DNA from: Acidimicrobiia bacterium
GTDB lineage: Bacteria; Acidobacteriota; Vicinamibacteria; Vicinamibacterales; UBA2999
Reading direction: 5' to 3'
Assembly: GCA_016871375.1 (NCBI GenBank)
Contig: VFYY01000001.1
Location: 6,616-70,615 of the forward strand
DNA length: 64,000 nucleotides
How positions within the stretch are numbered: the stretch's first letter is position 1; each line of letters starts with the position of its first letter. The notes beneath the pieces are model-generated. The model ran no database searches. It was given only the letters and a program-made list of their open reading frames with translations, and was not told where the DNA came from. Below, one piece after another: positions 2,281 to 21,612 of the stretch. The position numbers and the translations under genes were made by a program.

Positions 2281-3606
2281 ATGCCGTCGAGACGCCTGGC
2301 GCGGGAACAGGGGATGGCCCTGGTGGCGGTCATGCTGCTGCTGATGGCGATGTCCGCGCTCGCGGCCGCGCTGGCCATCAGCAGCACCACCGAGACGATG
2401 ATCGCCCGCAACCACCAGAACGCCGCCCAGGCCCGCGCCGCGGCGGAGGCGGGGCTCGCGCACGCGATCGACATCACGCTCGACTACCTGGCGGTGTGGC
2501 AGGCCGACTTCGCCTCGGTGGAGATGGCGATGGACGCGCTGCTCACCAACCCCGCGATGTACATCGACGACTACGATGTCGTGGAGGCAGGCGTCATCCT
2601 CGCGGGCATCGGCACCAGCTACTCGAGCCTCACCAATTCGGTCAGCAGCTTCTCGAGCATCTTCTACGAAGCCGTGCTCATCGACGACGACGACGAGGAC
2701 GCGCGCGACATCGTGCTGAGCGCCGACGACCTGACGCGGATGGGCGAAGACGGCGACCCGGGCGACGACAACAACAAGAAGCTCATCATCCGCGCGGTCG
2801 GCTACGCCGGCGGGAACGCCGTCTCGGCGGTCGAAGCCACCATCAGCTCGACGAGCATGCCCGGCCTGCTGACGGACGGGGACCTCACGCTCGGCGGCAG
2901 CTTCAGCCTCGGCGGCAGCGGCGGGTCCGTGCACACGAACGGCGACTTCACCGACAAGGGTGCCGCCTGGAGCGCAGCGGAAGGATGCACGGCCTCGGGC
3001 AGCGGCGTCACCGGGCCGCCCGCCTGCACCGGAGGCCAGGGCGAGATCGCGATTCCCGACAAGAGCGCCGACGACTATCTCTCGCTGGCGAAGTACATCC
3101 TGCACGATGACGGCGAGATGACCACCGTCAGCACGGGCACCAAGGCCGCGTGCGACCCGTGCGCGGGCGGGTGGGAGTTCAGCTCCGGAACGTGGACGCT
3201 GAGCGGCACGCTGGCCGCCCCGGACGGCAGCGTGTTCTACGTCGACGGCGACGTCGAGCTGGAGGAAGGCCAGGCCGTCACCTTCTTTGCCACCGGGGAC
3301 GTCGGCGCCGGAAACGGCAACTGGGAACCGGCGCTGCCCGGCATCATGTGGGTGAACGACGGCGACTTCGACGACTCGGGCAACCCGAATTTCGGGACGG
3401 CGACCAACGCCGGATTGATCGTGATCGGGGAACAGATCTCGCTCGCCGGCACCCTGACCATCTACGGCGCGATCATCGTCCGTGACGCCACCAACGACAG
3501 CTCGACGGTTACCGACAACCTGCTGACGGGCAACGTCACCATGACCTACGACGGCTCGCTCGACGGCAATTTCTTCGGCGTCTCCGCCTGGCGGCGGAGC
3601 TTCTAA
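2281..3606 (+). CDS. PilX-like pilus assembly protein, unusually large (441 aa)
   Basis: N-terminus REQGMALVAVMLLLMAMSALAAALAISSTTETMIARNHQNAAQARAAAEAGL resembles the PilX N-terminal domain (no classical G/F cleavage site). It is followed by an acidic stretch (DDDDEDARD...GDDNNKK) and a Gly/Thr-rich C-terminal region. Confidence 0.7.
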   Translation: MPSRRLAREQGMALVAVMLLLMAMSALAAALAISSTTETMIARNHQNAAQARAAAEAGLAHAIDITLDYLAVWQADFASVEMAMDALLTNPAMYIDDYDVVEAGVILAGIGTSYSSLTNSVSSFSSIFYEAVLIDDDDEDARDIVLSADDLTRMGEDGDPGDDNNKKLIIRAVGYAGGNAVSAVEATISSTSMPGLLTDGDLTLGGSFSLGGSGGSVHTNGDFTDKGAAWSAAEGCTASGSGVTGPPACTGGQGEIAIPDKSADDYLSLAKYILHDDGEMTTVSTGTKAACDPCAGGWEFSSGTWTLSGTLAAPDGSVFYVDGDVELEEGQAVTFFATGDVGAGNGNWEPALPGIMWVNDGDFDDSGNPNFGTATNAGLIVIGEQISLAGTLTIYGAIIVRDATNDSSTVTDNLLTGNVTMTYDGSLDGNFFGVSAWRRSF

Positions 3607-3607
3607 C

Positions 3608-4858
3608 TCAGGCCGCGGCGAGCGGCAGCGTCACCTCGACGCTCGCGCCACCGGCCGGCGACGTCCCGATCCCCACCCGTCCGTTGTGCATCACCACGAT
3701 CTTCTGGACGATGGCGAGTCCCAGGCCTGTGCCGCGTGACCGCGTGGTCACGAACGGCTGAAAGACGCGCGCGCGTTCGGACTCCGGGATTCCCGGACCG
3801 TTGTCCTCCACCGAGATGCGGCAGGCGCGGCGGCGCGCGTCCACGTCGCCGCCAATCACGATCGCGGGGCGCACGCCCGCGCTTTCGCACGCTTCCGCGG
3901 CGTTGCGCACCAGGTTGCCGAACACCTGTCGCAGCAGCACCTCGTCGCCGTCCACGTCGGCGAACCGTCCGCGGAGGTCGAGCGTCGCGCCCGCGGGCAG
4001 CTCGTGCTGCAGGTCCTCGCCGAGCCGCCGCAGCAGCGGCTCGAGCTCGACGCGCGAGAACTGGAGGCGCTCGGGGCGGGCGAAGTTGAGGAAGTTCGTG
4101 ACGACCTTGCCGAGCGCCTCCGTCTCCTGCCGGATGCCCTCGACGTAGGGCCGGTACTGCCCGGGCAGCGCGTCGGGCACGATGAGCCGGCTGTAACCGT
4201 GGATCGTGGCCAGGCCGTTCCTGAACTCGTGGGCGATGCCCGCCGTCAGCTCGCCGAGACGCGCCAGCGTCTCCTTCAGGCGAAGCTGCTCCTCGAGCTC
4301 GACGACGTTCGTGAGGTCGGAGAAGAGGCAGATGGCGCCGTGGCCCTCACGGCCGCCGAGCGGCGAGACCGAGGCGCCAAGGTGCGTCGTGCGATCCGCG
4401 CCCGGAATCTGCAGCGAACGCCTGAGGATCGCCCGCCGCGTGCCGAGGCACTCGGTGATCGCCTCGACCAGCGGCGGGACCGACGCGAGCACCGCGCGAT
4501 AGTCGCCGCCGGCGACGGCTGCCGGCACCGCGAGCATCTGCTGCCCGGCCGGATTGAGGATCTCGATCCTGCCCGTCCCGTCGACGACCAGCAGGCCGGC
4601 CGTGAGACTCGAGACGATCTGGCTGCTGAGCTGCTCGGACGCGACCGCGCGCGCGCTCATCGCCTGCTCCTGCGCCTTCAGCTTCGCCACCGCTTCCTGC
4701 AGCGCCGCGGAGAGGATCGCGGAATCGGCGCCGCCGGCCAGGTGGCGCTTGGCGTCGCGGGCGCCCGCCGCAAACTTCAGGACGGCGAATGTCATGATCG
4801 CCACCAGCATCGCGACGACCGCGGTCAGCCCCAGGAGCGCGTAGCCGTACTGCGTCAT
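3608..4858 (-). CDS. Sensor histidine kinase (TM + PAS-like + HisKA + HATPase_c)
   Basis: H-box GIAHEFRNGLATIHGY and ATPase motifs (VEDNGPGIP, GTGLGLAIV). I moved the start to ATG at 4858 (MTQYGYALLGLTAVVAMLV...), which overlaps the pilD stop as ATGA. The 43-codon Arg-rich extension in the ORF track is rejected. Confidence 0.85.
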   Translation of the reverse strand: MTQYGYALLGLTAVVAMLVAIMTFAVLKFAAGARDAKRHLAGGADSAILSAALQEAVAKLKAQEQAMSARAVASEQLSSQIVSSLTAGLLVVDGTGRIEILNPAGQQMLAVPAAVAGGDYRAVLASVPPLVEAITECLGTRRAILRRSLQIPGADRTTHLGASVSPLGGREGHGAICLFSDLTNVVELEEQLRLKETLARLGELTAGIAHEFRNGLATIHGYSRLIVPDALPGQYRPYVEGIRQETEALGKVVTNFLNFARPERLQFSRVELEPLLRRLGEDLQHELPAGATLDLRGRFADVDGDEVLLRQVFGNLVRNAAEACESAGVRPAIVIGGDVDARRRACRISVEDNGPGIPESERARVFQPFVTTRSRGTGLGLAIVQKIVVMHNGRVGIGTSPAGGASVEVTLPLAAA

Positions 4859-5622
4859 TGGTAGAGCGAGATGTACCAGGCGAGGATCGCGTCGCCGGCC
4901 ACCGCGGCGATGACGGCGCCGATGGCGAGGAAGGTGCCGAACGGCAGCGCCGCCTGCATGCCGCCCTTGCGTGTGGCGATGACCCACAGGCCGATCGCCG
5001 AGCCGCTGAACGACGCCAGAATCAGCGTCAGCAGCATCTGCGGCCAGCCGAGAAACGCGCCGACCATGGCCAGCATCTTCACGTCGCCCATGCCGAGCCC
5101 CTCGCGGCCCCGCGTGCGGTAGTAGATCTCCGACAGCGCCAGCAGCACGCCGCCGCCCGCGAGGATCCCGATGAGCGACTGCACCCAGCCCGGCGGCAGG
5201 AAGAAGCTGGCCGCGAAGCCGATGACGATGCCGGGCAGCGTGATGGCGTTCGGCAGGATGCGGTGGCGGAGGTCGATGGCGAAGAGCACGATGAGCGCGC
5301 AGGCGAACGCGACGCGCACCACCATCAGCGGCGTCAGCCCGTAGACCAGCACGCCGCCCGCGAACACCAGCGCGGTTGCGAGTTCAACGCTGGGATACAT
5401 CGGCGAGATCGCGGCGCCGCACGTGCGGCAGCGCCCCCGCAGCACCAGCCAGCTCACCACGGGCACGTTCTCGTACCAGGACAGCGGCCGTTCGCAGGAC
5501 GTGCAGTGCGACGAGGGCCAGTTCAGCGACTCGCCCCGCGGCAGGCGGTAGATGCAGACGTTGAGGAAGCTGCCGACGACCAACCCGGTGATCGCTGCCA
5601 GCATTAGCAGGAACAGCAGCAT
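4855..5622 (-). CDS. pilD: Prepilin peptidase / N-methyltransferase PilD
   Basis: MLLFLLMLAAITGLVVGSFLNVCIYRLP...HCTSCERPLSWYENVPVVSWLVLRGRCRTCG is the hallmark PilD/A24 peptidase N-terminus with its Cys cluster. GMGDVKM is an active-site Asp motif. Start placed at ATG 5622; the ORF-track 5-prime extension is a GC artefact. Confidence 0.92.
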   Translation of the reverse strand: MLLFLLMLAAITGLVVGSFLNVCIYRLPRGESLNWPSSHCTSCERPLSWYENVPVVSWLVLRGRCRTCGAAISPMYPSVELATALVFAGGVLVYGLTPLMVVRVAFACALIVLFAIDLRHRILPNAITLPGIVIGFAASFFLPPGWVQSLIGILAGGGVLLALSEIYYRTRGREGLGMGDVKMLAMVGAFLGWPQMLLTLILASFSGSAIGLWVIATRKGGMQAALPFGTFLAIGAVIAAVAGDAILAWYISLYQ

Positions 5623-6461
5623 TACTGGAGCGTGTAGGGCCCGGTGGGCAGCGGGCTGAGCCGCGAGCGCGGGTCGAGGCTCACGGTTCCACCGTCGATC
5701 CGGTACGGGACGCCCGTCGGATCGACAGGCGTGCCCGGCAACGCGCGGCCGCGCCGCAGTTCGGCGGTGAGGAAGTCGATCTGGTCCATGGCGTCGAGCT
5801 GCATCAGGCGGCGCTGCGCCTCGTTGCGGAACCAGTCCTCCTCCGCCGTGCGCGCGAACTCTTCCCAGAGTCGCCGGGAGGAGTCGCGGCGTCCGCCCTG
5901 CGCCAGCGTGACGGCCGCCAGCGGCGTCAGCCAGCTCGGCGCGTCCGGCAGTGCCGCCGCGCGCGTGAACCAGTCCGCCGCCGTCGGATAGTCCATCAGC
6001 CACCAGTAATGCACGAACCCGATCGCCTGGGCAAACCGCCAGTTCTCCGGCTGGGTGTCGAGCCCCTTCTCCAGCAGGCGAATGGCCTGGTCGGGCCGGC
6101 CCGGCCCACCGGGATGGGGCTCCGCCAGGAACACCGCCCCGAAGAGGTACGCCACGGTCATCCGTGGATCGAGTGAGGTCGTGAGGTCGAGCAGCGGAAA
6201 CAGCAGGTCGTAGCGCTTGTCCGGGTCGTTCGACAGCTTCGTGCCGCCGTAGTGCTGCACGGTCCGGATCCAGTAGACGTCGGCGAGCAGCTGGTCGTAC
6301 GAGAGCGCGAGCCGCTTCATCGCCTCCGGCGAGCGGACGTAGAGCATCGCCGGCGTCTGCGCGGCGGGCGGACCGCCGGCGCGGTCGTGTACCGCCTGCA
6401 AACCGATGACGCCGCCGCCGAGCAGCGCGAGCAGCACGAACAGCCAGCGGCGCCCGCTCAT
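5622..6461 (-). CDS. Secreted/periplasmic TPR-like helical repeat protein (pilus-cluster associated)
   Basis: Signal-like N-terminus MSGRRWLFVLLALLGGGVIG, helical-repeat-looking body. The ATG at 6461 overlaps the permease stop (ATGA) and the stop abuts the pilD start. Function is inferred only from operon context. Confidence 0.6.
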   Translation of the reverse strand: MSGRRWLFVLLALLGGGVIGLQAVHDRAGGPPAAQTPAMLYVRSPEAMKRLALSYDQLLADVYWIRTVQHYGGTKLSNDPDKRYDLLFPLLDLTTSLDPRMTVAYLFGAVFLAEPHPGGPGRPDQAIRLLEKGLDTQPENWRFAQAIGFVHYWWLMDYPTAADWFTRAAALPDAPSWLTPLAAVTLAQGGRRDSSRRLWEEFARTAEEDWFRNEAQRRLMQLDAMDQIDFLTAELRRGRALPGTPVDPTGVPYRIDGGTVSLDPRSRLSPLPTGPYTLQ

Positions 6462-7264
6462 TTGAAATCGCGCCTGTCGAAGACCAGGACCGATGCCGTC
6501 AGCAGCAGCGCGATGTACACGACGCCGTACACCGCCGTCGTCAGCACGTACGCCGGCGGCACGGGGAGGGCATGCACGACCTGCGCCTTGACGTCGAAGG
6601 CGGCGAAGTTCGGCAGCACGTAATAGAGCCCCCGCGCGATCCAGCCCGCCGCCGGCGACTGGAGCACCGCCTCGAAGTTGCGGAGATCCGCGTTGAACGA
6701 GCCGATGACCCAGAGCCCGAGCGTCAGCGCCGCGGACAGGAACGGCCCGGAGAAGGTCGAGAAGAACAGCGCAATCGCCGTGACCAGCAGCAGCTCGACG
6801 AAGATGAGCGCGATGGCGAGCAGCATCCCCGGGTCGGTCGCGGGCGCCGGCCACGCCGCACGCATCGGCGCGGGGAACCGTGTGTTCAGGAATGCCAGCA
6901 CCGCATAGAACGCGAGCGTCATCACGGCGACGTTGACGAAGAGCGTCAGCGCCAGGCCCGCATACTTCCCCAGGATGAACTCGTAGCGGCGGATCGGCTT
7001 GGACAGCAGGCTGTAGATGCTCTTGCGCTCGACTTCCTTCCACACCAGCCCGATGCCGATGAAGACCGCGATCAGCAGGCCGAAGGTGGCGATGGCCGCC
7101 AGCCCCAGGTCCTTGATGATCTTCACGTCCTGCCCCGCCGTCAGCTGCCCCAGCAGGAACGACACGCTGATGAGCAGCACCGCGAAGGCGACGAGGATGT
7201 AGAGCACGCGGTCGCGCACCGCTTCGCGGAAGACGTTGACGGCGACGATGACGAGGGCGCGCAT
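6458..7264 (-). CDS. ABC-2 type transporter permease (PilI-like by context)
   Basis: 268-aa polytopic protein. The N-terminus MRALVIVAVNVFREAVRDRVLYILVAF...SLLSKPIRRYEFILGKY is typical of the ABC-2/NosY-like permease family. Immediately downstream of the ATPase. Confidence 0.8.
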   Translation of the reverse strand: MRALVIVAVNVFREAVRDRVLYILVAFAVLLISVSFLLGQLTAGQDVKIIKDLGLAAIATFGLLIAVFIGIGLVWKEVERKSIYSLLSKPIRRYEFILGKYAGLALTLFVNVAVMTLAFYAVLAFLNTRFPAPMRAAWPAPATDPGMLLAIALIFVELLLVTAIALFFSTFSGPFLSAALTLGLWVIGSFNADLRNFEAVLQSPAAGWIARGLYYVLPNFAAFDVKAQVVHALPVPPAYVLTTAVYGVVYIALLLTASVLVFDRRDFK

Positions 7265-7267
7265 GGG

Positions 7268-8209
7268 TCAGCGCTTCACCGCGGCCACCTGCCGCATGAA
7301 GAAGTCCTCGAGCGTCTCGCGAACCGGGTTGAGCGACCCGAGCTGCGCGCCGTGCGCGGTCAGGTCGGCGAGGATGCGATCCGGCGGCGTGGAGAGCGGC
7401 AGTTCGAGCGCGTAGCGGTCGCCGCCAAGCAGGGTCGCCTTCGTGATGCGCCCGAGGCCGCGCGCGTGTTCCAGCGCCTCCGTGGTGAGGCCCGTGACCA
7501 CCAGTTCCCAGCCGCGCAGCTGGAATGCCAGCATGTCGGCGAGCGAGCCGGACGTGACGAGCCGTCCGCCGGCGAGGATCGCGACGCGATTGCACAGCGC
7601 CTCCGCATCCGAGAGCACGTGCGAGCTGAAGAAGACGGTGCAGCCGCGGTCGCGCAGCCGGAGGATCATCTCGCGGATCTCGCGGCGGCCGACCGGGTCC
7701 AGGCCCGACATCGGCTCGTCGAAGACGACGAGATCGGGCTCGTTGACCAGCGCCTGCGCGATCCCCACCCGCTGGATCATCCCCTTCGAGAACTTCCGCA
7801 GCTGGAACCGCCGCTCCGCGCCGATGCCGACTTCGTCGAGCAGCGACGAGGCGCGGCGCCGCCGCTCTGCCCCCGCGTAGCCGAACAGCGCCGCGAAGTA
7901 CTCGAGCAGTTCCTCCGCGGTCAGGTAGTCGTAGAAGTACGGATGCTCGGGCAGGTAGCCGACGCGGCGCCTGACGCCCACGTCGCCGGCGGGCCGGCCG
8001 AGGATCTCGGCGCGGCCGCTGGTCGGGTGAATCAGCTGCATGAGCAGCTTCAGCGTGGTGGTCTTGCCGGCGCCGTTCGGCCCGAGAAAGCCGAACACCT
8101 CGCCGTCGGGCACGTCCAGCGTCAGCGCGTCGAGGGCGACGTACGGACGCCGCCGCCAAAACCCGACGCTGAAGTGCTTCGTGAGGGCTTCAGTCCGGAT
8201 GGCGCTCAT
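7268..8209 (-). CDS. ABC transporter ATP-binding protein (PilH-like by context)
   Basis: Walker A GPNGAGKTT, signature FSKGMIQR, Walker B LVVFDEPMSGLD. Start set at ATG 8209 (MSAIRTEALTKHF); the longer ORF-track version is an upstream frame shadow. Confidence 0.92.
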   Translation of the reverse strand: MSAIRTEALTKHFSVGFWRRRPYVALDALTLDVPDGEVFGFLGPNGAGKTTTLKLLMQLIHPTSGRAEILGRPAGDVGVRRRVGYLPEHPYFYDYLTAEELLEYFAALFGYAGAERRRRASSLLDEVGIGAERRFQLRKFSKGMIQRVGIAQALVNEPDLVVFDEPMSGLDPVGRREIREMILRLRDRGCTVFFSSHVLSDAEALCNRVAILAGGRLVTSGSLADMLAFQLRGWELVVTGLTTEALEHARGLGRITKATLLGGDRYALELPLSTPPDRILADLTAHGAQLGSLNPVRETLEDFFMRQVAAVKR

Positions 8210-8229
8210 GGGGCGGCGGCAGCCGCGGG

Positions 8230-9456
8230 CTACTGCGTCCCGCTCGGCTCCGATGTCCGTCTGAGTTCGTAGGCGATCGCGGCGTCGAAGTACACGGGCC
8301 GCAGGCTCGAGTTGATCCTGATGCCGTTGATGTAGAAGGTCGGCGTCCCCTGAATCTGCAGGCGCTGGCCGAGCTGCGCGTCGGCGCGCACCTGCTCGAG
8401 CACCGTCGGGTACTGGGCGTCGAAGTCGTCGACCTGCGCGATCTCCTGCAGGCCCTGCTTCACCTGGTCGCGCGTCATCGCCTGCGACTGGTTCGCGAAG
8501 AGCCACTCCTCCATCTGCTCCCCGCGGTTCTTCGCGCGCGCCATGCGCACCGCCGCCGCGGCCTCGCAGGCGGCGCCGTGGATGCCGCCGGTGTTGCACT
8601 CGGCCTCCAGCGGGAAGTCCACGCTGACGAACTTGACCTGGTCGGCGGCGGAGGCGCGGTACTTCTCGACGATCCAGCGGTACTCGAGGTACGTCTGGCG
8701 GCACGCCGGGCACTGATAGTCGTTGAACTTGGCGACGACGACCTTGGCGCCGTCGGCGGGGATCCCGAGATCGGTCCGCGGCTGCATGGCGAGCCACGCC
8801 TCGAACTGCGCCACCTCGTCGGGGTGCAGCGTTTCGGTCGGCGGCGCGACAGCCGCGGCGACCGTCTCGCCGCCGGTCGAGGCCGCCTCACGCGGGAAGA
8901 ACACGACGACGCCGAGCGAGGCGATGAGCCAGAGCGCGGCCAGCCCCGTCGCCGCGGAGTTCTTGAGCATGCCGCCGATGTCGCGGCCGACGCGGCCGGG
9001 CAGCGACCCGAGCGAGGCCGATCCCGCGCCGCCCGACAGCAGGAAGATGCCGATCACCGCCACGTACACCGCGACGCACAGCAGGCACGTGCGGTTGAGC
9101 ACGAAGAACGACGCGTAGGCGAAGTAGAGCACCGCCGCCAGGCCGATGGTGGCGAGCACGAAGATGTAGCTCCTGGTCGCGGCGGCGGTGTCGGGGTTGC
9201 GCGAATTCAGCCCGAAGGCGGCGAGCAGCGCGACGAGCCCGGCCCAGATCGCGCCGCCGGCGGCCACCGGCACGCCGCGCACGGTGCCGTACGCGCTCTC
9301 GTAGACGGCCTCGCAACTCACCGTTTCGCTGATGTCGCAGAAGCTCACGTAGTTCGGGTCGGCGATCATGCGGTAGTGCACGTAGAGCGACGCGATCGAC
9401 GCCCCGAGCGCCACCAGTGCGAGGAGGAGAATCCAGGTATTGAGCTGTTTTTTCAT
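8230..9456 (-). CDS. VKOR-domain / DsbA-like thioredoxin fusion (periplasmic disulfide-bond formation)
   Basis: N-terminal polytopic domain with loop cysteines (FCDISETVSC) and a membrane CXXC (CLLC), as in vitamin K epoxide reductase homologues. C-terminal domain has the thioredoxin motif YQCPACRQ. Start overlaps the stop of the YfhO-like gene. Confidence 0.85.
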   Translation of the reverse strand: MKKQLNTWILLLALVALGASIASLYVHYRMIADPNYVSFCDISETVSCEAVYESAYGTVRGVPVAAGGAIWAGLVALLAAFGLNSRNPDTAAATRSYIFVLATIGLAAVLYFAYASFFVLNRTCLLCVAVYVAVIGIFLLSGGAGSASLGSLPGRVGRDIGGMLKNSAATGLAALWLIASLGVVVFFPREAASTGGETVAAAVAPPTETLHPDEVAQFEAWLAMQPRTDLGIPADGAKVVVAKFNDYQCPACRQTYLEYRWIVEKYRASAADQVKFVSVDFPLEAECNTGGIHGAACEAAAAVRMARAKNRGEQMEEWLFANQSQAMTRDQVKQGLQEIAQVDDFDAQYPTVLEQVRADAQLGQRLQIQGTPTFYINGIRINSSLRPVYFDAAIAYELRRTSEPSGTQ

Positions 9457-11900
9457 GATGCGGTCGCTGCCAGTCGCATCCTACGGGCGGCTCCGCGGGC
9501 TGTCAACCACTCGCGGGCGCAGGCCAGCAGCAGCGCCAGGGCGGTCACCAGCGTCACGCCCAGCCCCGCGTAGAACTGGAGCGGCCGGTAGCGGAAGCGG
9601 ACTTCGTGCGGTCCCGGCGCCAGGCGCACGGCGCGGTAGATGCCGTTGGCGCGGAGCAGCTCGGCAGGCTCGCCGTCCACTTCGACCTGCCACCCCGGGT
9701 CGTACGTGTCGAGCGCGTTCACGTAACCACCACCTGCGCCAACCGACGCACTGATCAGCACCTCTGTGTTGCGCTCGCTGACGATGCGCGCGCGCGGCGG
9801 CCCCGGAGCGCCGGGCCGTCCGGCGGGCGGCGGCGGCTCCCGCTCGAGCAGCACTTCCGCGTACGGATCGTGCGCGGCCTCGAAGAGCGGACGGATCTGG
9901 TCGCGGCGCACGGAGACGACGCGGGCGGCAGGGGTTACGTAGACGCGCCGCGGCGAGGTCTCACATGCATACAGCGCCATCGGCGTCGTGGACAGATTGG
10001 GCGGCGTCAAGGGCTTCGCGCCGGGATGCGGCGGGTCGGCCATGTAGCAGTATCGGTTCCCCGTCCGCCGGATGAACCGAACGCGCTCCTCGGCGGACGC
10101 GCCGCCGAACATCTGGATCATCAGCGCGTACTCCGCCGGCCAGAGTTGTGGCAGGTCGTAGGAAACCGATTCCCGGACGCCCCAGACGGCCGGGAAGTAC
10201 GCGAACTCCGCGCCGAGCACCGCGTTGCCCTGTTCGAACGGCAGCGCGGCGTCCGAGGTATACGAGACCGCCGCGTCGACGGCCCTCGGCGCGCGCCGCG
10301 GCGGCTTGATGGGCGCCAGCACGCGGCCGCCGACGTACACCCGATCGGGATGACGGCGCGCGAGAGGCAGCCACGTCGGCGACGGGAGGGCCTCGGCCGC
10401 CATCGTCGGATGCGCGTCGCGGTTGATCACCAGCGGATCGACGATGGCGACCGCGCACACCAGCACCGCGGCCGCGGGCGCCTGGCGGTGGCCGCTCCAG
10501 ACGACGGCGACGAGCAGCGCGACGCCGCCGCTGATGGCCGCAACGGCAAGCAGCAGCGGCGGCGACGAGCTGACGATCCACTGCGTCGCCGCGGACGGAT
10601 CGGCGAATGCCAGTCCGTCTCCCAGCCGTGCCCAGACGGCGTGGATGACGTCCGGCGAGACAGAGGCGCCGAGGCCCAGGGTCACGCCGATCGCCGTCAC
10701 GGCGCCGGCGAGTGCGAGCGGGAGCACGGGCCGCCGCATCGCGCCTCGTCCACGGGCGTGGGCCAGCAGCGCGTCGGCGCCCATCGTGGCCAGCGCCGCG
10801 AGCGCGGCCATGGCGAAGACCAGGTACTTGACCGGAAAGCGGAACGACTGCACGAGCGGAAAGGCGCTCTGCAGCGCCGGGTAGAACGGCGTATATCGTC
10901 CGAGCGCGCACAGCAGCGCGACACCTGCCACCGCCCACCAGAAGACGCGGCGGCGGCGCGCGCCGGGCTCGCGCGAGGCCACGGCACCGAGCACCAGGGC
11001 GCCGACGCCGACATACAGCGTCACGAACAACGGCTCCCGGTTGTGAAAGGCGAGCATCCACGGCATGGTTTCCGCCTGGCCGGTCGCGGAATGGCCGAAC
11101 AGGTGCCCCACCATCAGCTCGCCGATTTCCAGCGGATGCAACGACCACGACACGTCATCGACACCGATGGCGCGCAGCGACCGGGTGGCTGCGAAGCCGA
11201 GCGGAAACGTCTGCACGGCCGACAGCAGCGCGCCCGCCGTCAGGGCAGCGGTGACGCGGATCACACGGAGCAGCCGCTCACGCCAGGCGACCGCGCCGTG
11301 CCCGAACGCCGCGTAGACGAGGACGAGGACGGCCGTACCGGCAAGCGTGACGGGCTCGCCTGTGATCGCCTGCAGCCCCATCCACGTCGCGAGCGTCGCG
11401 ACGCGGCCCGCGCCGGGCTCGTCCGCGAGGCGGTTGGTTGCCCATAACGCCCAGGGGATGCACGCGACCGCCCACGAGAGATTGGGAAAATTGCCCGTGG
11501 ACACGACCGGCCCGACCGCCACGAAGATCGCGGCACCGACGAAGGCCGACGCCGGCGACCCGTACCGCCGCAGCCAGAGCCACGCGCCGACGGCGGCGAC
11601 CGGAAACGGCGCCGCCACCCAGAAGTTGAAACCCGGAATCGGAGGAAGCGCCACCCGGACGAGCGTCACGGGCAGCAGGAAGAACTGGTTCAACGCGTCG
11701 GCAACCGCTGACTGTCCTCCCGCGGCGTACGGATCCCACCACGGCCAGTCGCCGCCGAGCACCGTCTCACGCAGCCACCGGTGGCGCGGCCAGAAATAAT
11801 TCGAGAGATCGCGCACGTAAAAGACGTGCGTCGTGGAAAACCCGCCGGCGACCGGGACCAGCGCGGCCACCGCGGCAAGCACCGGCCACAGACGTGTCAC
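9453..11900 (-). CDS. YfhO-family (GT-C-type) polytopic membrane protein
   Basis: 815 aa. The N-terminus has the YfhO-like pattern (FYVRDLSNYFWPRHRWLRETVLGGDWPWWDPYAAGGQ). There are many TM segments. The C-terminus is typical of the family: (YDPGWQVEVDGEPAELLRANGIYRAVRLAPGPHEVRFRYRP), followed by a final TM segment. GTG start overlaps the pilin stop (GTGA). Confidence 0.72.
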   Translation of the reverse strand: MTRLWPVLAAVAALVPVAGGFSTTHVFYVRDLSNYFWPRHRWLRETVLGGDWPWWDPYAAGGQSAVADALNQFFLLPVTLVRVALPPIPGFNFWVAAPFPVAAVGAWLWLRRYGSPASAFVGAAIFVAVGPVVSTGNFPNLSWAVACIPWALWATNRLADEPGAGRVATLATWMGLQAITGEPVTLAGTAVLVLVYAAFGHGAVAWRERLLRVIRVTAALTAGALLSAVQTFPLGFAATRSLRAIGVDDVSWSLHPLEIGELMVGHLFGHSATGQAETMPWMLAFHNREPLFVTLYVGVGALVLGAVASREPGARRRRVFWWAVAGVALLCALGRYTPFYPALQSAFPLVQSFRFPVKYLVFAMAALAALATMGADALLAHARGRGAMRRPVLPLALAGAVTAIGVTLGLGASVSPDVIHAVWARLGDGLAFADPSAATQWIVSSSPPLLLAVAAISGGVALLVAVVWSGHRQAPAAAVLVCAVAIVDPLVINRDAHPTMAAEALPSPTWLPLARRHPDRVYVGGRVLAPIKPPRRAPRAVDAAVSYTSDAALPFEQGNAVLGAEFAYFPAVWGVRESVSYDLPQLWPAEYALMIQMFGGASAEERVRFIRRTGNRYCYMADPPHPGAKPLTPPNLSTTPMALYACETSPRRVYVTPAARVVSVRRDQIRPLFEAAHDPYAEVLLEREPPPPAGRPGAPGPPRARIVSERNTEVLISASVGAGGGYVNALDTYDPGWQVEVDGEPAELLRANGIYRAVRLAPGPHEVRFRYRPLQFYAGLGVTLVTALALLLACAREWLTARGAARRMRLAATAS

Positions 11901-12412
11901 TGCAGGGGGTTGCCCGCGGTCATGTTCGCGAGTTGGACCACGTCGGCCCGTATCTGGCCGGTTTCGTCGGTGGCGAAGAACCGGACGCCGCTCGTGCCGG
12001 TCGCGTCGGGGTCGCCCTGAACGAAGAACGTGGAGGTCGAAGCGGCGGACGCGCTGTTGCAGGTATCGCCGGCCTCGAGCACGCTCGCGCCCGTGGCGGT
12101 GATCGTGAACTCATAGCCGCTCTTGGGCGTGCCGGCGGGAGTCGCCTCGGCCAGGTCAGCCGGGATGAACGCCGTGCCGCCCGGGGGCGCGGTGGCGAGA
12201 TCGGCCAGCGACGGCGCGTAGCCGCCACCGCCGCAGCCGGCGGCGTAGGTCATCTGCGCGCTGTGGATCGTCCGCATCGAGGCAATCGCCGACGCCTCGT
12301 TGCCCGACAGCTTCGCCCGCAGCAGGCCGGGGACGGCGATGGCCGCCAGAATCCCGATGACGGCGACGACCATCAGGAGTTCGATGAGCGTGAAGCCGCG
12401 GCTGTTCTGCAT
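11897..12412 (-). CDS. pilA: Type IVa pilin paralogue (second, distal copy)
   Basis: MQNSRG-FTLIELLMVVAVIGILAAIAVPGLLRAK: 6-residue leader plus canonical T4a pilin N-terminal helix. Two Cys (GCGGGGY ... DTCNSASAASTST) and a Ser/Thr-rich patch. Confidence 0.9.
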   Translation of the reverse strand: MQNSRGFTLIELLMVVAVIGILAAIAVPGLLRAKLSGNEASAIASMRTIHSAQMTYAAGCGGGGYAPSLADLATAPPGGTAFIPADLAEATPAGTPKSGYEFTITATGASVLEAGDTCNSASAASTSTFFVQGDPDATGTSGVRFFATDETGQIRADVVQLANMTAGNPLQ

Positions 12413-12421
12413 GGGTTCGTG

Positions 12422-12459
12422 CAGAGAAAAAGAGAGGGACGCCGCGCCGGCGTCCCTCT
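12422..12459 (-). terminator. Intrinsic terminator between the two pilin genes
   Basis: Minus strand reads AGAGGGACGCC-ggcgc-GGCGTCCCTCT followed by CTTTTTCTCT. That is an 11-bp GC-rich perfect stem, 5-nt loop and T-tract, starting about 20 nt after the stop of the upstream pilin. Confidence 0.8.
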
Positions 12460-12481
12460 TGGATCACGGACGCGATCGCCC

Positions 12482-13006
12482 TTACTGCAGGGCCGTGCCG
12501 CCGGTGATGTCGGTGAACACCGCGTCGGTCGCCTGGCGAATCTGGCCGCTGTGATCCGTCAGGAAATAGCGCGTGCCGCTGCTGCCCGGGTCCACCGGCT
12601 CGGCGGTCGCGTTGAAGCCCGACGTGGTCGTGCTCGAGTCGTTGCAGGCACCCGAGGCCAGAACGGTATCGCCCGCCGCGTTCACGTCGAACTCATAGCC
12701 GCTCTTCGGGGTCGTGTTGGCCACGTCCGCTGCCGCCAGGTCGGCCGGGATGAACGCGACGTTGGAACCCGGCGCGTTCGTTCCGAGCGTGTCGAGCGAG
12801 CCCGCATAGCCGCCGCCGCCGCAGCTCGAGGCGAACGTCGCCTGGCCGCTGCTGATGGTCCGAATCGACCCGATCGCGGAGGCCTCGTTGCCGGACATGC
12901 GCGCCCGGAGCAGGCCGGGGACCGCGATGGCCGCGATGATGCCGATGATCGCCACGACGATCAGCAGCTCGATCAGCGTGAAACCCTTGTTGTCGCGCAT
13001 TCTCAT
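12482..13006 (-). CDS. pilA: Type IVa major pilin candidate (promoter-proximal copy)
   Basis: MRMRDNKG-FTLIELLIVVAIIGIIAAIAVPGLLRAR. Two Cys and a Ser/Thr-rich patch (ACNDSSTTTSGFNAT). It has its own sigma-54 promoter, a GAGGAG RBS and a terminator. An alternative ATG lies at 13000. Confidence 0.92.
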   Translation of the reverse strand: MRMRDNKGFTLIELLIVVAIIGIIAAIAVPGLLRARMSGNEASAIGSIRTISSGQATFASSCGGGGYAGSLDTLGTNAPGSNVAFIPADLAAADVANTTPKSGYEFDVNAAGDTVLASGACNDSSTTTSGFNATAEPVDPGSSGTRYFLTDHSGQIRQATDAVFTDITGGTALQ

Positions 13007-13057
13007 ACAGGCAGGCTCCTCAGTTGTGTGCTGAAACGCTTAGCACCCCCCTTGAGG

Positions 13058-13072
13058 GCAACCCGTATGCCA
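13058..13072 (-). promoter_or_regulatory. Sigma-54 (-24/-12) promoter of the pilin gene
   Basis: Minus strand reads TGGCAT-ACGGG-TTGCC against the consensus TGGCAC-N5-TTGCW, with correct spacing. The -12 element is about 52 nt upstream of the ATG. A sigma-54 activator (PilR-like) is encoded immediately upstream. Confidence 0.75.
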
Positions 13073-13163
13073 CGCCGCCCTTGTGTGGCATGGAGACTAA
13101 GCCGCTCTTTCACAGAGAGTTAGGCCACCGACGCGAACCGTGATCGTGCGAAAGCGTGCACAA

Positions 13164-13193
13164 GCTGACAAAAACTGTCAGCGAGGGCTGACA
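13164..13193 (-). promoter_or_regulatory. Candidate enhancer (UAS) for the PilR-like activator
   Basis: Perfect palindrome GCTGACA-aaaac-TGTCAGC (13164-13182) plus a third GCTGACA half-site (13187-13193). It sits about 95-120 bp upstream of the sigma-54 promoter, the usual bEBP distance. (C/G)TGTC-type repeats are what I recall for PilR sites in Pseudomonas. Confidence 0.5.
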
Positions 13194-13237
13194 CTAATTG
13201 ACGATCTCGGAGGAAGCCCGCTCTCCCCGAGTCGTGC

Positions 13238-14679
<1,442 letters not shown>

Positions 14680-14683
<4 letters not shown>

Positions 14684-16347
14684 GAGGCGAGGCTCCCTGC
14701 GGCCACGCCTTCACGGACCGGGAACAGGACGCGCACGGTCGTGCCCACGCCGACGGTGGACGACACCTGGATGGAGCCGCCGTAGTCGGTGACGATGCGG
14801 TGCACGATCGCGAGCCCGAGGCCGCTGCCCTTCTCGAAGGAGGTGCGGAACGGCTGGAAGATGCTGTCCAGCTCCTCGGCGGGAATGCCGCGGCCTTCGT
14901 CCTGGACGGCGAGCACCAGCTCCCCCTCGCCGACGGCGGTGTTGTCCGTCACCGACAGCAGCAGGCGTCCGCCGCCAGGCATCGCGCGCAGGCCGTTGGT
15001 GGCGAGGTTCCAGACGATCTGGCGCACCTGGTTCTCGTCGGCCTCGTACCACGCCGGCTCCGCCGGAATGGCGACGTCCACGACGTGATCGCCGTGCACC
15101 TCCGCGCTGTTGCGCAGCAGGAGCGCGGTGTCCTGCACCACCTTGGCGATGTCGAGGCGCGCGACCGCGAACTTCTGCGGGCGGGCGTAGGCGAGGAACG
15201 AGCGGATCGTGTCGTTCAGGCGCTCCGACTCCTTGAGCACGATGTCCATGAGCTGCGCCTGGTCCTCGCTGAGCGGCAGCTCCTGGCGCAGGACCTGGAT
15301 CGAGCCCGACATGGACGCCAGCGGGTTGCGGATCTCGTGCGCGATGCCGGCCGCCATCTCGCCGACCGCGGCCAGACGCTGCTGCAGCCGCGCGTGCCGC
15401 TCGAGGCGCTTGACGTCGGTGACGTCCTGGAAGGTGAAGAGATATCCGTGGCGGCCGCTCGGGAAGGCGACCGTCGACGCCGTCATGCCGATGTCGATGC
15501 GGCGGCCGTCCGTGGTGCGGAACTCGACGTCGGAGCGGAGGCTGCGGCGCTCGGCGAGGTCGCTGAGGCGCGCGCGCATGGCGAGCGGCAGCTGCAGCAC
15601 TTCGGTGGCATCGTGGCCGACGGCCTGCTCCGCGGTCAGTCCGGTGATCTCCGCCGCGGACCGGTTGAACGTCAGCACGCGCAGGTCGCGGTCCGCCGTG
15701 ACCAGGCCGCTCAGCAGGCTCTCGATGACGTGCTCGTTGAAGGCGCGCAGGTCCTCGAGCTCGTGCGACGCGTCCTCGAGGCGCGCGTCCGCCGTCCGCC
15801 AGCCTTCGGCGAGCGCGCCGGAAAGGAGCGCCACGGCGACGAAGCCGAACAGGTTGATGGCGACGGTGTACTGCGCAAACTGCTGCGACGGCAGGTCGAG
15901 GCGGAGATCGCCGAGCCACGACCCGGGCCCGTACGGGAACACGTTGAGGTACTGCGCGGAGACGAGCGTCAGGTAGAGGATGGCGCTGAGCGCCGCGACC
16001 TGCAGGGCGCCGCGGCGGAACCGCACCATGCTCGCCGCCATGATGGGCAGCAGGTAGAGCGACGAGAAGTAGCTGGTGATGCCGCCCGTGAGCTGGATGA
16101 ACCCCGACACCAGGATCGCGTCGGCGCCGAGCTGGGCATCGGCGAGCCACAGGTGGCGGTCGACCAGGCGCAGGGTCCCCAGGTACGCCAGGCTCAGCGC
16201 GTAGGTCACCCCGATCAGGAAGAAGAACGGGTCGACCGGGAACGTGCCGGGCCTGTTCAGCTGAATCAGGATCGCCCAGCCGAGCAGCAGCGTGCTGACG
16301 ACGACCCTGACCGCGATCAGCGTGGAGAGCCGGGAGCGTAAATTCAT
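14680..16347 (-). CDS. pilS: Sensor histidine kinase, PilS-like
   Basis: Polytopic N-terminus (MNLRSRLSTLIAVRVVVSTLLLGWAILIQL...), PAS-like region, H-box GIAHEIRNPLASMSG, HATPase motifs (QDEGRGIP, GSGLGLAIV). Start moved to ATG 16347; upstream codons in the ORF track lie inside the heptamer repeat. Confidence 0.87.
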
Positions 16348-16409
16348 TTGCGATTTGCGATTTGTGATTTGTGATTTGCGTTTCCGATCGCAAATCACAA
16401 ATCACAAAT
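16346..16409. repeat. Heptanucleotide tandem repeat (ATTTGYG)5 + inverted (CRCAAAT)3; perfect 21-bp hairpin
   Basis: 16346-16380 is ATTTGCG ATTTGCG ATTTGTG ATTTGTG ATTTGCG, then an 8-nt loop, then 16389-16409 CGCAAAT CACAAAT CACAAAT. 16360-16380 is the exact reverse complement of 16389-16409. It fills the pilC-pilS spacer. Confidence 0.95.
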
Positions 16410-20606: not shown

Positions 20607-20649
20607 CTACGGACTGAAACGTGTATTAGGAACCGGCTGACAATTTCTG

Positions 20650-21612
20650 TCAAAAGGAAACGCGCGCCGCCAGGCCCCAGCCCTCCTCGTCGGCCGCCCC
20701 CCCTTTGACCGCGTATCCGTCCACGAAGACACCCGACCGCACCGCCACGCTGGCCCCCCCGGTGGCGCTTCGCTCCCGCCGGCCCACCATATTGAAACGG
20801 CCACCGGCCCGGATTCCGAACCGCCGCGCCTGGAACCACCGCTCGATCCCGGCGGCCACCACCCGGCGGTCCCCGCCGCCGGCGTCATACGACCGCAGGT
20901 CGGCATCGACGGCGACGGTCAACGGCCCGCCGGTCGCCCGCTCCGCGTCGAAGGCCGCGCCGGCCCGCACCTGGCGAGGCAGGCGAAAATCCTCGAATTC
21001 GGGCTGACCCACGTTCCGGACGACGGCTCCAAGCCGCACCGGACCGGCCACCGCGAGCACTCCCACATCCGCGTCGAATCGGTTGTGCGTGGCCCCCTCA
21101 CCAACGGTGCCGCGCACGTATTTCAGCGTGGTTCCGGCATGAACTCCGGGCGTCAGCGTCTGGACCAGCGTGACACCCAGCTGGCTGGCGGACAGCGACC
21201 GGGCGGGGAGTCCAACCCGTCTATCTTCTCGGTCTGGTGTGCCCTGTCCTGTAGGGCTGAATGGCTGTATGTCTGTGAGCCGAAAGCGGTAATAGCCGAT
21301 TCCGAATGGCGGCGTCGCAAGCGTGAACGAGGTCGTCCGGTGGCGCCAGGCCGGCAGCGACTCCTCCGCCTCGGTCGCGGCCCTTGCCAGCGCCATGTCC
21401 ATGAACGGGCCCGCGGCAAGCCCACCCGGATTCCACCAGATGGCACTCGAATCAGACGCAACCGCGACGAAGGCTCCCCCCATCCCAAGCGCACGCGGAC
21501 CAGTCGATTCGATGATTTGGGCAGACGCCGGAACGCTGAGGCCGAGGCAAAGCAGTGTAATACTGACCAGCTGGTCGCGCCGCCCGGCGGTATAATTTTT
21601 TTGATTACTCAA
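20650..21612 (-). CDS. Putative outer-membrane beta-barrel protein
   Basis: The C-terminal residue is Phe (...GLAARVSF) and the body has alternating beta-strand-like patterns. It carries the motif ALGMGGAFVAVASDSSAIWWNPGGLA seen in FadL/PorV-like barrels. I propose a TTG start at 21612, giving a signal peptide (M)SNQKNYTAGRRDQLVSITLLCLGLSVPASA-Q. The long ORF-track extension is rejected; the start is uncertain. Confidence 0.6.
   Translation of the reverse strand: MSNQKNYTAGRRDQLVSITLLCLGLSVPASAQIIESTGPRALGMGGAFVAVASDSSAIWWNPGGLAAGPFMDMALARAATEAEESLPAWRHRTTSFTLATPPFGIGYYRFRLTDIQPFSPTGQGTPDREDRRVGLPARSLSASQLGVTLVQTLTPGVHAGTTLKYVRGTVGEGATHNRFDADVGVLAVAGPVRLGAVVRNVGQPEFEDFRLPRQVRAGAAFDAERATGGPLTVAVDADLRSYDAGGGDRRVVAAGIERWFQARRFGIRAGGRFNMVGRRERSATGGASVAVRSGVFVDGYAVKGGAADEEGWGLAARVSF

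Follow-up and report, generated by a model that had tools for sequence, protein, structure and literature searches.

How does a bacterium that carries two type IV pilin genes one behind the other set the transcription of each, and which of the genes that follow depend on the promoter of the first? The question is raised by a stretch of DNA of 64 kilobases (kb) from a Vicinamibacterales bacterium (Acidobacteriota), hereafter the window, in which positions 12422-13202 appear to be the control module of the gene for the major type IV pilin (pilin 1). All coordinates are those of the window, and the region is read on the minus strand. A preliminary description had listed here a palindrome, a sigma-54 promoter element, a ribosome-binding site, the pilin gene and a terminator, and had proposed that a second pilin gene (pilin 2) and all the genes chained behind it are expressed by read-through of this terminator. 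The listed elements are all found where they had been placed, far above chance expectation. Taking them together with the related loci described below, we think it probable that a PilR/sigma-54 module and a terminator govern pilin 1, that pilin 2 and the adjoining gene for a YfhO-like membrane protein are reached by read-through, and that the accessory operon behind them has a promoter of its own.

Control of a pilin gene by an adjacent PilS-PilR pair together with RpoN (sigma-54) is known from Geobacter sulfurreducens (PMC2725144), Myxococcus xanthus (PMC6211767) and Pseudomonas aeruginosa (PMC6058289). The locus is like these systems in that pilS and pilR lie directly upstream of the pilin gene, that PilR combines a receiver domain, an AAA+ domain with the GAFTGA motif and an HTH_8 domain, that the promoter is of the -24/-12 type and that the putative activator sites have a TGTC core; it is unlike them in belonging to the Acidobacteriota and in having two GACA-N5-TGTC palindromes of 13 base pairs (bp), with starts 23 bp apart, which we infer from the sequence. 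The pilR product is a complete enhancer-binding protein by its domain order (receiver, AAA+ domain with GAFTGA at residue 240, C-terminal helix-turn-helix of the Fis type) and also has the Walker A motif GESGTGKE and the motif ESELFGH. NCBIfam holds no PilR-specific model, and its best matches to the protein are AtoC and NtrC, both below the cutoffs of these models. The gene of a 6TM_PilS kinase stands immediately upstream of pilR, and the pilin gene follows 231 nucleotides (nt) downstream of pilR.

For comparison we used 80 related loci, one genome per species, which were found by scanning with PilR and on which custom scripts were run to obtain the comparative counts. Their PilR proteins are 62-82% identical to that of the window, and nearly all of the loci are labelled Vicinamibacterales or Acidobacteriota. 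In about 70 of them the gene after pilR encodes a pilin, and many have two to five tandem pilin genes. What was observed in this set are the sequence elements themselves, their statistical rarity and the conservation of their positions. The pilin-1 protein was also found on four metagenome contigs (L081-L084), the aligned stretches of which are 99.95-100% identical to the window; they represent the same species, and their near identity leaves no polymorphism to be used.

The sigma-54 element upstream of pilin 1 has a spacing of exactly 10 nt between its GG and its GC dinucleotide and ends 50 nt before the ATG of the gene; transcription is predicted to start near 13046-13048. The same type of element (TGGCAY-N5-TTGCT) is present 40-130 nt before the start of nearly every related pilin gene with more than about 200 nt of spacer ahead of it, and is missing ahead of the second pilin genes with short spacers. 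Alignment of 97 pilin promoters of the relatives gave the consensus TGGCAccgCcGTTGCT. Ahead of the first pilin genes of the relatives a Shine-Dalgarno (SD) sequence, AAGGAG or GAGGAG, is conserved as well. In the 97 aligned promoters the zone from -50 to -28 is AT-rich (0.6 versus 0.32 for the whole window) with the pattern aA...aat..aa.....TTt, and this stretch between enhancer and promoter may be a bending site. The window has in addition a 7-bp inverted repeat, ATGCCAC-N11-GTGGCAT, at 13067-13091 on the minus strand, the 3' arm of which is the -24 element itself; the repeat was not found in the relatives and may be due to chance.

Upstream of the promoter three of the eight TGTCAGC heptamers of the window are crowded into 30 nt (13187-13193, 13176-13182 in opposite orientation and 13164-13170). 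The preliminary description had seen one perfect palindrome here and an extra half-site. The TGTCAGC of this half-site is indeed present, but it forms the right-hand half of another, imperfect palindrome that starts 23 bp upstream of the perfect one. In a survey of 938 kb of related loci 78 of 95 exact copies of GACA-N5-TGTC lay within 200 nt upstream of pilin sigma-54 promoters, which corresponds to 4.0 copies per kb in these 200 nt versus 0.0185 per kb elsewhere, an enrichment of about 200-fold. The centres of the palindromes are located at -100 to -130 nt from the -24 T in the relatives, and a degenerate second site (up to 3 mismatches) starts exactly 23 bp farther upstream in 39 of 63 related promoters, or 22-24 bp in 48 of the 63. 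The paired, conserved palindromes are consistent with being binding sites of PilR. In P. aeruginosa the PilR site is composed of a TGT-N11-AGA element and nearby GTCT elements (PMC6058289), compared to which the double palindrome is a different arrangement around a similar core. No relevant paper linking PilR with TGTC was found in the literature searched. The assignment of the proximal pilin gene to PilR and sigma-54, already made in the preliminary description, is thus supported by position-specific conservation in about 70 related genomes and by the presence of a complete enhancer-binding protein beside a PilS-type kinase.

The predicted intrinsic terminator of pilin 1 begins 22 nt past the stop codon with a hairpin of about -24 kcal/mol (12-bp stem with 9 G-C pairs, 3-nt loop); the stem of 11 bp given previously results when this hairpin is drawn with a loop of 5 nt. 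The z-score of the surrounding 91-nt stretch against shuffled sequence is -3.75, and in a scan of 3500-12500 this hairpin was the sole terminator-like site. An Rfam scan of 11800-13300 gave only sub-threshold chance matches and, with these, no known RNA element. Equivalent hairpins of -21 to -30 kcal/mol are found at the same place in L003, L007, L025, L004 and L016. When hairpins were counted only if they reached -15 kcal/mol, had a T-rich tail and stood not more than 100 nt behind the gene, 63 of 105 pilin genes (60%) were followed by such a structure, versus 8 of 600 random windows (1.3%) from the same loci. The stems of these hairpins form a few sequence families common to several species (L034, L035, L037, L041, L043, L047, L052 and others; further L057, L063, L074, L079 and L080); 18 of the 63 hairpins, for example, have CGGGATGCC...GGCATCCCG, and about 7 have CCGGCATGGCC...GGCCATGCCGG. 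This conservation of sequence exceeds what a generic terminator needs.

Pilin 2 has its ATG at 12412, only 14 nt past the T5 run, and is 58% identical to pilin 1. Since it resembles most closely the second pilins of L003, L007 and L025 (59-64% identity), pilin 2 is apparently an old, maintained paralogue. In the window and in these three loci the gene begins 10-22 nt after a pilin-1 hairpin of -22 to -30 kcal/mol, and with other pilins this layout recurs in L004 and L016. A scan of the window gave no sigma-70-like or sigma-54-like site between the start of pilin 1 and the ATG of pilin 2; the second pilin genes of L003, L007 and L025 have neither an SD sequence nor a promoter-like site upstream, so that the earlier statement of a second pilin gene lacking a detectable promoter holds for the window and its three orthologous loci. 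No conserved -35/-10 or -24/-12 element was seen upstream of the second pilin gene in the five genomes with this arrangement. Two candidates were rejected on these grounds, an internal promoter of the sigma-70-like or sigma-54-like type, for which nothing is conserved across the five genomes, and a promoter giving a leaderless mRNA, for which the window offers no -10-like hexamer ahead of the ATG, and L003 and L007 only weak, badly spaced ones. Pilin 2 also shows no anti-SD pairing (0 kcal/mol versus -8.4 kcal/mol for pilin 1), as had been noted before. By the same measure pilB, pilC, VKOR-DsbA, both ABC genes, pilD and the second kinase gene are without SD; most genes of the cluster are therefore in the same position, and the missing SD of pilin 2 is not diagnostic. 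Read-through from the sigma-54 promoter is plausible as the simplest route to transcription of pilin 2.

How far does the read-through unit extend? Within the 3' end of the open reading frame for the YfhO-like protein, ahead of VKOR-DsbA, lies TTGACA-N17-TAGGAT; with one mismatch allowed, the 64 kb contain no other match (0.00 expected), and the scan gives no other promoter-like site in 3500-12500. In the relatives the terminator of the last pilin gene is followed by a free spacer and then by VKOR-DsbA, ABC ATPase, permease, orfX, pilD and kinase, and within this spacer, 38-50 nt ahead of the start of VKOR-DsbA, there is a promoter-like element of the sigma-70 type. It reads TTGACA-N17-TAGGAT in L003, L007 and L025 and TTGACG-N17/18-TACAAC in many others, and most of the remaining relatives have a TAGGAT, TATAGT or TATAAT hexamer at equal offset; the -35/-10 pair reaches a score of 10 or more out of 12 in 27 of 61 loci, and most others have a -10-like hexamer. 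The accessory operon, including pilD, appears to have its own conserved promoter. Since the site before VKOR-DsbA is unique and conserved in position, the candidate unit for expression by read-through only shrinks to, at most, pilin 2 and the YfhO-like gene. The latter overlaps the stop codon of pilin 2 (GTGA) and the start codon of VKOR-DsbA (ATGA) and is absent from all 80 related loci. Because of this absence and because the promoter-like site lies inside its 3' end, we regard the YfhO-like gene as a lineage-specific insertion between pilin 2 and a pre-existing VKOR-DsbA promoter.

The proposal that all eight genes from pilin 2 to the second kinase are expressed by terminator read-through only, the terminator alone setting the stoichiometry, drew on the tight chaining of the genes; it would also fit that there is no terminator-like site from 12433 down to 3500 and that read-through transcripts would run on into the accessory genes. 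Against it stand the perfect and unique match at 9478-9506 and the promoter-like element at the equal position in the relatives, where it lies in free spacer behind the pilin terminator. Moreover, pilD and the ABC genes would be required whenever a pilin or pseudopilin is processed, which makes their sole expression by PilR-driven read-through unlikely. In this full form we hold the proposal to be very improbable. It is also unlikely, in our view, that the terminator is efficient and that pilin 2 and the YfhO-like gene are either transcribed from an unrecognised promoter, in the 3' part of pilin 1 or in the hairpin, or are essentially silent. Such a view can point to the poorly known promoter motifs of Acidobacteria, to the strong appearance of the hairpin and U-tract and to the lack of an SD before pilin 2; but the five genomes with the arrangement have no -35/-10-like or -24/-12-like site in common ahead of pilin 2, the ATG follows the hairpin at 10-22 nt in each species, which leaves no space for a separate promoter after the hairpin, and pilin 2 has stayed intact at 59-64% identity in four species and so should be expressed somehow.

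Two further readings concern the structures on either side of pilin 1. The hairpin behind it could serve chiefly to stabilise the 3' end of a processed pilin-1 mRNA, one long transcript having segments of different stability, and not as a site of termination. The stem families common to several species may suggest a constraint beyond that on a generic terminator, and the T-tracts after the hairpins of the relatives are often interrupted (TTGTATTGC, CTTGCTTAA); in the window, however, a canonical CTTTTT tract stands behind the hairpin, and we judge this reading improbable. Stabiliser and terminator are not exclusive, and either would yield the same excess of pilin 1. The TGTCAGC repeats, for their part, could be the terminator of pilR (TGTCAGCCCTCGCTGACA followed by GTTTTT) instead of an enhancer to which PilR binds: they stand 45 nt past the pilR stop, and the scan flags them as terminator-like with a 7-bp stem and, including flanking bases, about -13 kcal/mol. 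But second, third and fourth pilin cassettes without pilR ahead of them have palindromes of this kind upstream, and the palindromes are therefore not merely a pilR terminator. Their spacing is fixed to the -24 element and not to the pilR stop, which is at a distance of about 118 to more than 400 nt from the -24 element, and the conserved unit GACA-N5-TGTC is a DNA palindrome that differs from the proposed hairpin stem. A pilR terminator in place of an enhancer is hardly credible on this evidence.

Some observations weigh against the model that we prefer, in which PilR and sigma-54 drive pilin 1 and read-through serves pilin 2 and the YfhO-like gene. With respect to rpoN, no RpoN-box motif was found within the 64-kb window. 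The strict consensus of integration host factor (IHF) is present in just 3 of the 97 promoters, and the AT-rich region is weak in the window. An alignment of six hairpin regions with MAFFT and RNAalifold was out of register and gave no clean covariation; the hairpins in the relatives are supported by individual folds, one sequence at a time. The consensus of Acidobacteria promoters is not established, for which reason pilin 2 may have a promoter that was not recognised. Finally, the promoter-like site inside the YfhO-like coding sequence could be a relic of the insertion, although it is perfectly preserved.

In the preferred model phosphorylated PilR, encoded just upstream, would bind as dimers to the two GACA-N5-TGTC palindromes with starts 23 bp apart, build up its AAA+ ring, contact the closed complex of sigma-54 RNA polymerase about 100 bp downstream and open the promoter; the AT-rich stretch between the PilR sites and the promoter may help the DNA to bend. 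With a leader of about 40 nt and the strong GAGGAG, pilin 1 would be made in bulk. The G+C-rich hairpin of 12 bp and the U-tract would stop most transcripts, and the fraction that reads through would carry pilin 2 and the YfhO-like gene. VKOR-DsbA, the ABC transporter, orfX, pilD and the second kinase would be transcribed from the constitutive-type TTGACA-N17-TAGGAT, independent of read-through. Binding, activation, termination efficiency and promoter activity are the inferred parts of this scheme.

The window contains one other exact GACA-N5-TGTC, TTGACAgaaatTGTCAGC, at 20636-20653 on the minus strand. The pilB ATG (20606) follows 33 nt downstream of this copy, which partly coincides with a -35-like TTGACA; the promoter scan calls no sigma-70 promoter there. 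Among the 27 loci that reach the start of pilB an exact palindrome is found at this place in 8 (7 relatives and the window), and variants like TGACG-N5-CGTCA in a few more. The pilB palindrome may be a PilR operator on pilB-pilT-pilC-pilS-pilR and, if so, would allow feedback on the operon of pilR itself. A broader reading, in which the PilR palindrome is both enhancer (of the pilin genes) and operator (of the pilB operon) and in which the terminator sets the pilin ratio at two levels, strikes us as rather doubtful. According to its second part the terminator limits transcription, and the U-tract may double as the start region of the SD-less pilin 2, a layout seen in four species. Another palindrome-like motif, TGACGTTTTAGGTCA, stands some 15 nt farther upstream than the pilB palindrome (L033, L050, L054, L066, L076, L077, L055 and L041); it recurs ahead of pilB in many relatives and is not obvious in the window.

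Table 1. Features of the pilin control region and of the genes around it (window coordinates; aa, amino acids; Cys, cysteine).
Feature	Position	Strand	Evidence or remark
PilS-type sensor kinase (pilS)	14680-16398	minus	Pfam 6TM_PilS, PAS, HisKA, HATPase_c
PilR-type sigma-54 enhancer-binding response regulator (pilR)	13238-14683	minus	Pfam Response_reg, Sigma54_activat (6e-72), AAA_lid_14, HTH_8
Distal imperfect PilR-type palindrome GTCAattagTGTC	13190-13202	minus	one mismatch to GACA-N5-TGTC
Proximal perfect PilR-type palindrome GACAgttttTGTC (cTGACA-N5-TGTCAGc)	13167-13179	minus	centre 101 nt upstream of the -24 T
Possible IHF-like, DNA-bending stretch between enhancer and promoter	13098-13124	minus	weak in the window, inferred only
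Sigma-54 -24/-12 promoter TGGCATACGGGTTGCC (TGGCAT-ACGGG-TTGCC)	13057-13072	minus	sole exact TGGCAY-N5-TTGCH in 64 kb, 0.08 expected
SD sequence of pilin 1, GAGGAG	13016-13021	minus	9 nt before the ATG at 13006; -8.4 kcal/mol against anti-SD
Pilin 1	12482-13006	minus	174 aa, leader MRMRDNKG/FTLIE, two Cys; Pfam N_methyl 1.6e-10
Predicted intrinsic terminator/attenuator	12423-12459	minus	stem 12433-12459 and CTTTTTCTCT at 12423-12432
Pilin 2	11897-12412	minus	171 aa, leader MQNSRG/FTLIE, two Cys; Pfam N_methyl 9.8e-9
YfhO-like membrane protein	9453-11900	minus	815 aa; Pfam YfhO at threshold, C-terminal part only
Sigma-70-type promoter-like site TTGACA-N17-TAGGAT	9478-9506	minus	within the 3' end of the YfhO-like open reading frame, 21 nt ahead of the ATG of VKOR-DsbA
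VKOR-DsbA fusion, at the head of the conserved accessory operon	8230-9456	minus	Pfam VKOR, Thioredoxin_4, DSBA
ABC ATPase	7268-8209	minus	Pfam
ABC-2 permease	6458-7264	minus	Pfam
Conserved orfX	5622-6461	minus	conserved gene order
Prepilin peptidase (pilD)	4855-5622	minus	Pfam
Second sensor kinase	3608-4858	minus	Pfam

Both pilins have the type IVa pilin motif, a short basic leader ending in G, then FTLIE and a hydrophobic helix (MRMRDNKG/FTLIELL and MQNSRG/FTLIELL). The best NCBIfam match of pilin 1 is the Myxococcus-type PilA, under the cutoff of that model; its N-terminus is similar to the Geobacter and Myxococcus PilA structures, and its orthologues L003.1 and L007.1 are 63-66% identical. 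Each of the two pilins has exactly two Cys (62/121 and 60/118), and a VKOR-DsbA fusion is conserved in the pilus cluster across the order, an indication that the pilins have their own dedicated source of disulfide bonds. The YfhO-like protein has weak C-terminal matches to the PgfM1/PgfM2 glycosyltransferases in NCBIfam; no relative with a solved structure was found, and three distant metagenome homologues have no pilin gene beside them. A role as pilin glycosyltransferase or modifier, which we considered, is unsupported, the YfhO and PgfM matches being C-terminal and at threshold level and the homologues being without a neighbouring pilin.

By Pfam assignments the genes on the minus strand are, in order, pilB, pilT, pilC, the PilS-type kinase, the enhancer-binding protein with receiver (REC), AAA+ and HTH_8 domains and the two pilins, continued by the YfhO-like membrane protein, VKOR-DsbA, ABC ATPase, ABC-2 permease, orfX, pilD and the second kinase. 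From pilin 2 on the junctions are overlaps or very short gaps (GTGA, ATGA, 21 nt, 3 nt, ATGA, TAATG, ATGA). The order of the accessory genes (3608-8209) is identical across the relatives, and VKOR-DsbA comes after the last pilin gene in 60 related loci. In the 1990s Wu and Kaiser reportedly found the M. xanthus pil cluster to be ordered pilB-pilT-pilC-pilS-pilR-pilA-pilGHI-pilD-pilS2. The order pilB, pilT, pilC, pilS, pilR, pilin, ABC genes, pilD and second kinase is like that of M. xanthus, the ABC genes being matched by their position in the cluster; unlike it are the VKOR-DsbA fusion, the conserved orfX, the tandem pilin cassettes of the relatives and the YfhO-like insertion.

Three to five tandem pilin genes are present in L011, L019, L020, L022 and L048. 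In most of these loci every pilin gene forms a self-contained cassette with GACA-N5-TGTC sites, a -24/-12 promoter and a terminator hairpin of its own, a layout that suggests duplication of whole cassettes. In L011, L012, L016 and L017 the promoter-driven pilin cassettes are preceded by an open reading frame for a pilin-like protein of 178-181 aa with a long leader. Its start is 4 nt ahead of the pilR stop codon, and by this overlap it would be translationally coupled to pilR.

The idea of the terminator as a stoichiometry device, put forward in the preliminary description, already existed: a Rho-independent terminator behind the pilin gene that attenuates accessory genes is common in P. aeruginosa pilin cassettes, where it was mutated to test its role in the stoichiometry of pilin and accessory proteins, and terminators downstream of pilin genes have also been reported for Dichelobacter nodosus, for Eikenella corrodens and for Xanthomonas campestris pv. 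vesicatoria (PMC11841053). The locus is like the P. aeruginosa pilA-tfpY/tfpO/tfpW cassettes in having a strong predicted intrinsic terminator after the major pilin gene and, in pilin 2 and the YfhO-like gene, co-directional genes downstream for which no promoter-like site was found, and unlike them in that a full-length second pilin and a YfhO-like protein are encoded behind the terminator, with no TfpY, TfpO or TfpW homologue.

We are thus dealing with a known kind of pilin switch in a phylum without an earlier description of one; in the literature searched, no study of how Acidobacteria regulate their pilins turned up. Vicinamibacterales are abundant in soil and fresh water and mostly uncultured, and no regulatory data on them are reported in the same literature. 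For this order the analysis yields a promoter map of the pilus cluster and a testable PilR motif, in which two GACA-N5-TGTC palindromes with starts 23 bp apart stand at about 100 bp from TGGCAY-N5-TTGCT. It also gives a caution, namely that tight chaining of genes in one genome is no proof of a single transcription unit; it was the comparison with relatives that revealed the promoter-like site buried in an inserted gene. The current view of pilin regulation is left unaltered, and the design of pilin gene, terminator and downstream genes expressed at a low level, known from Proteobacteria, would extend to the Acidobacteriota.

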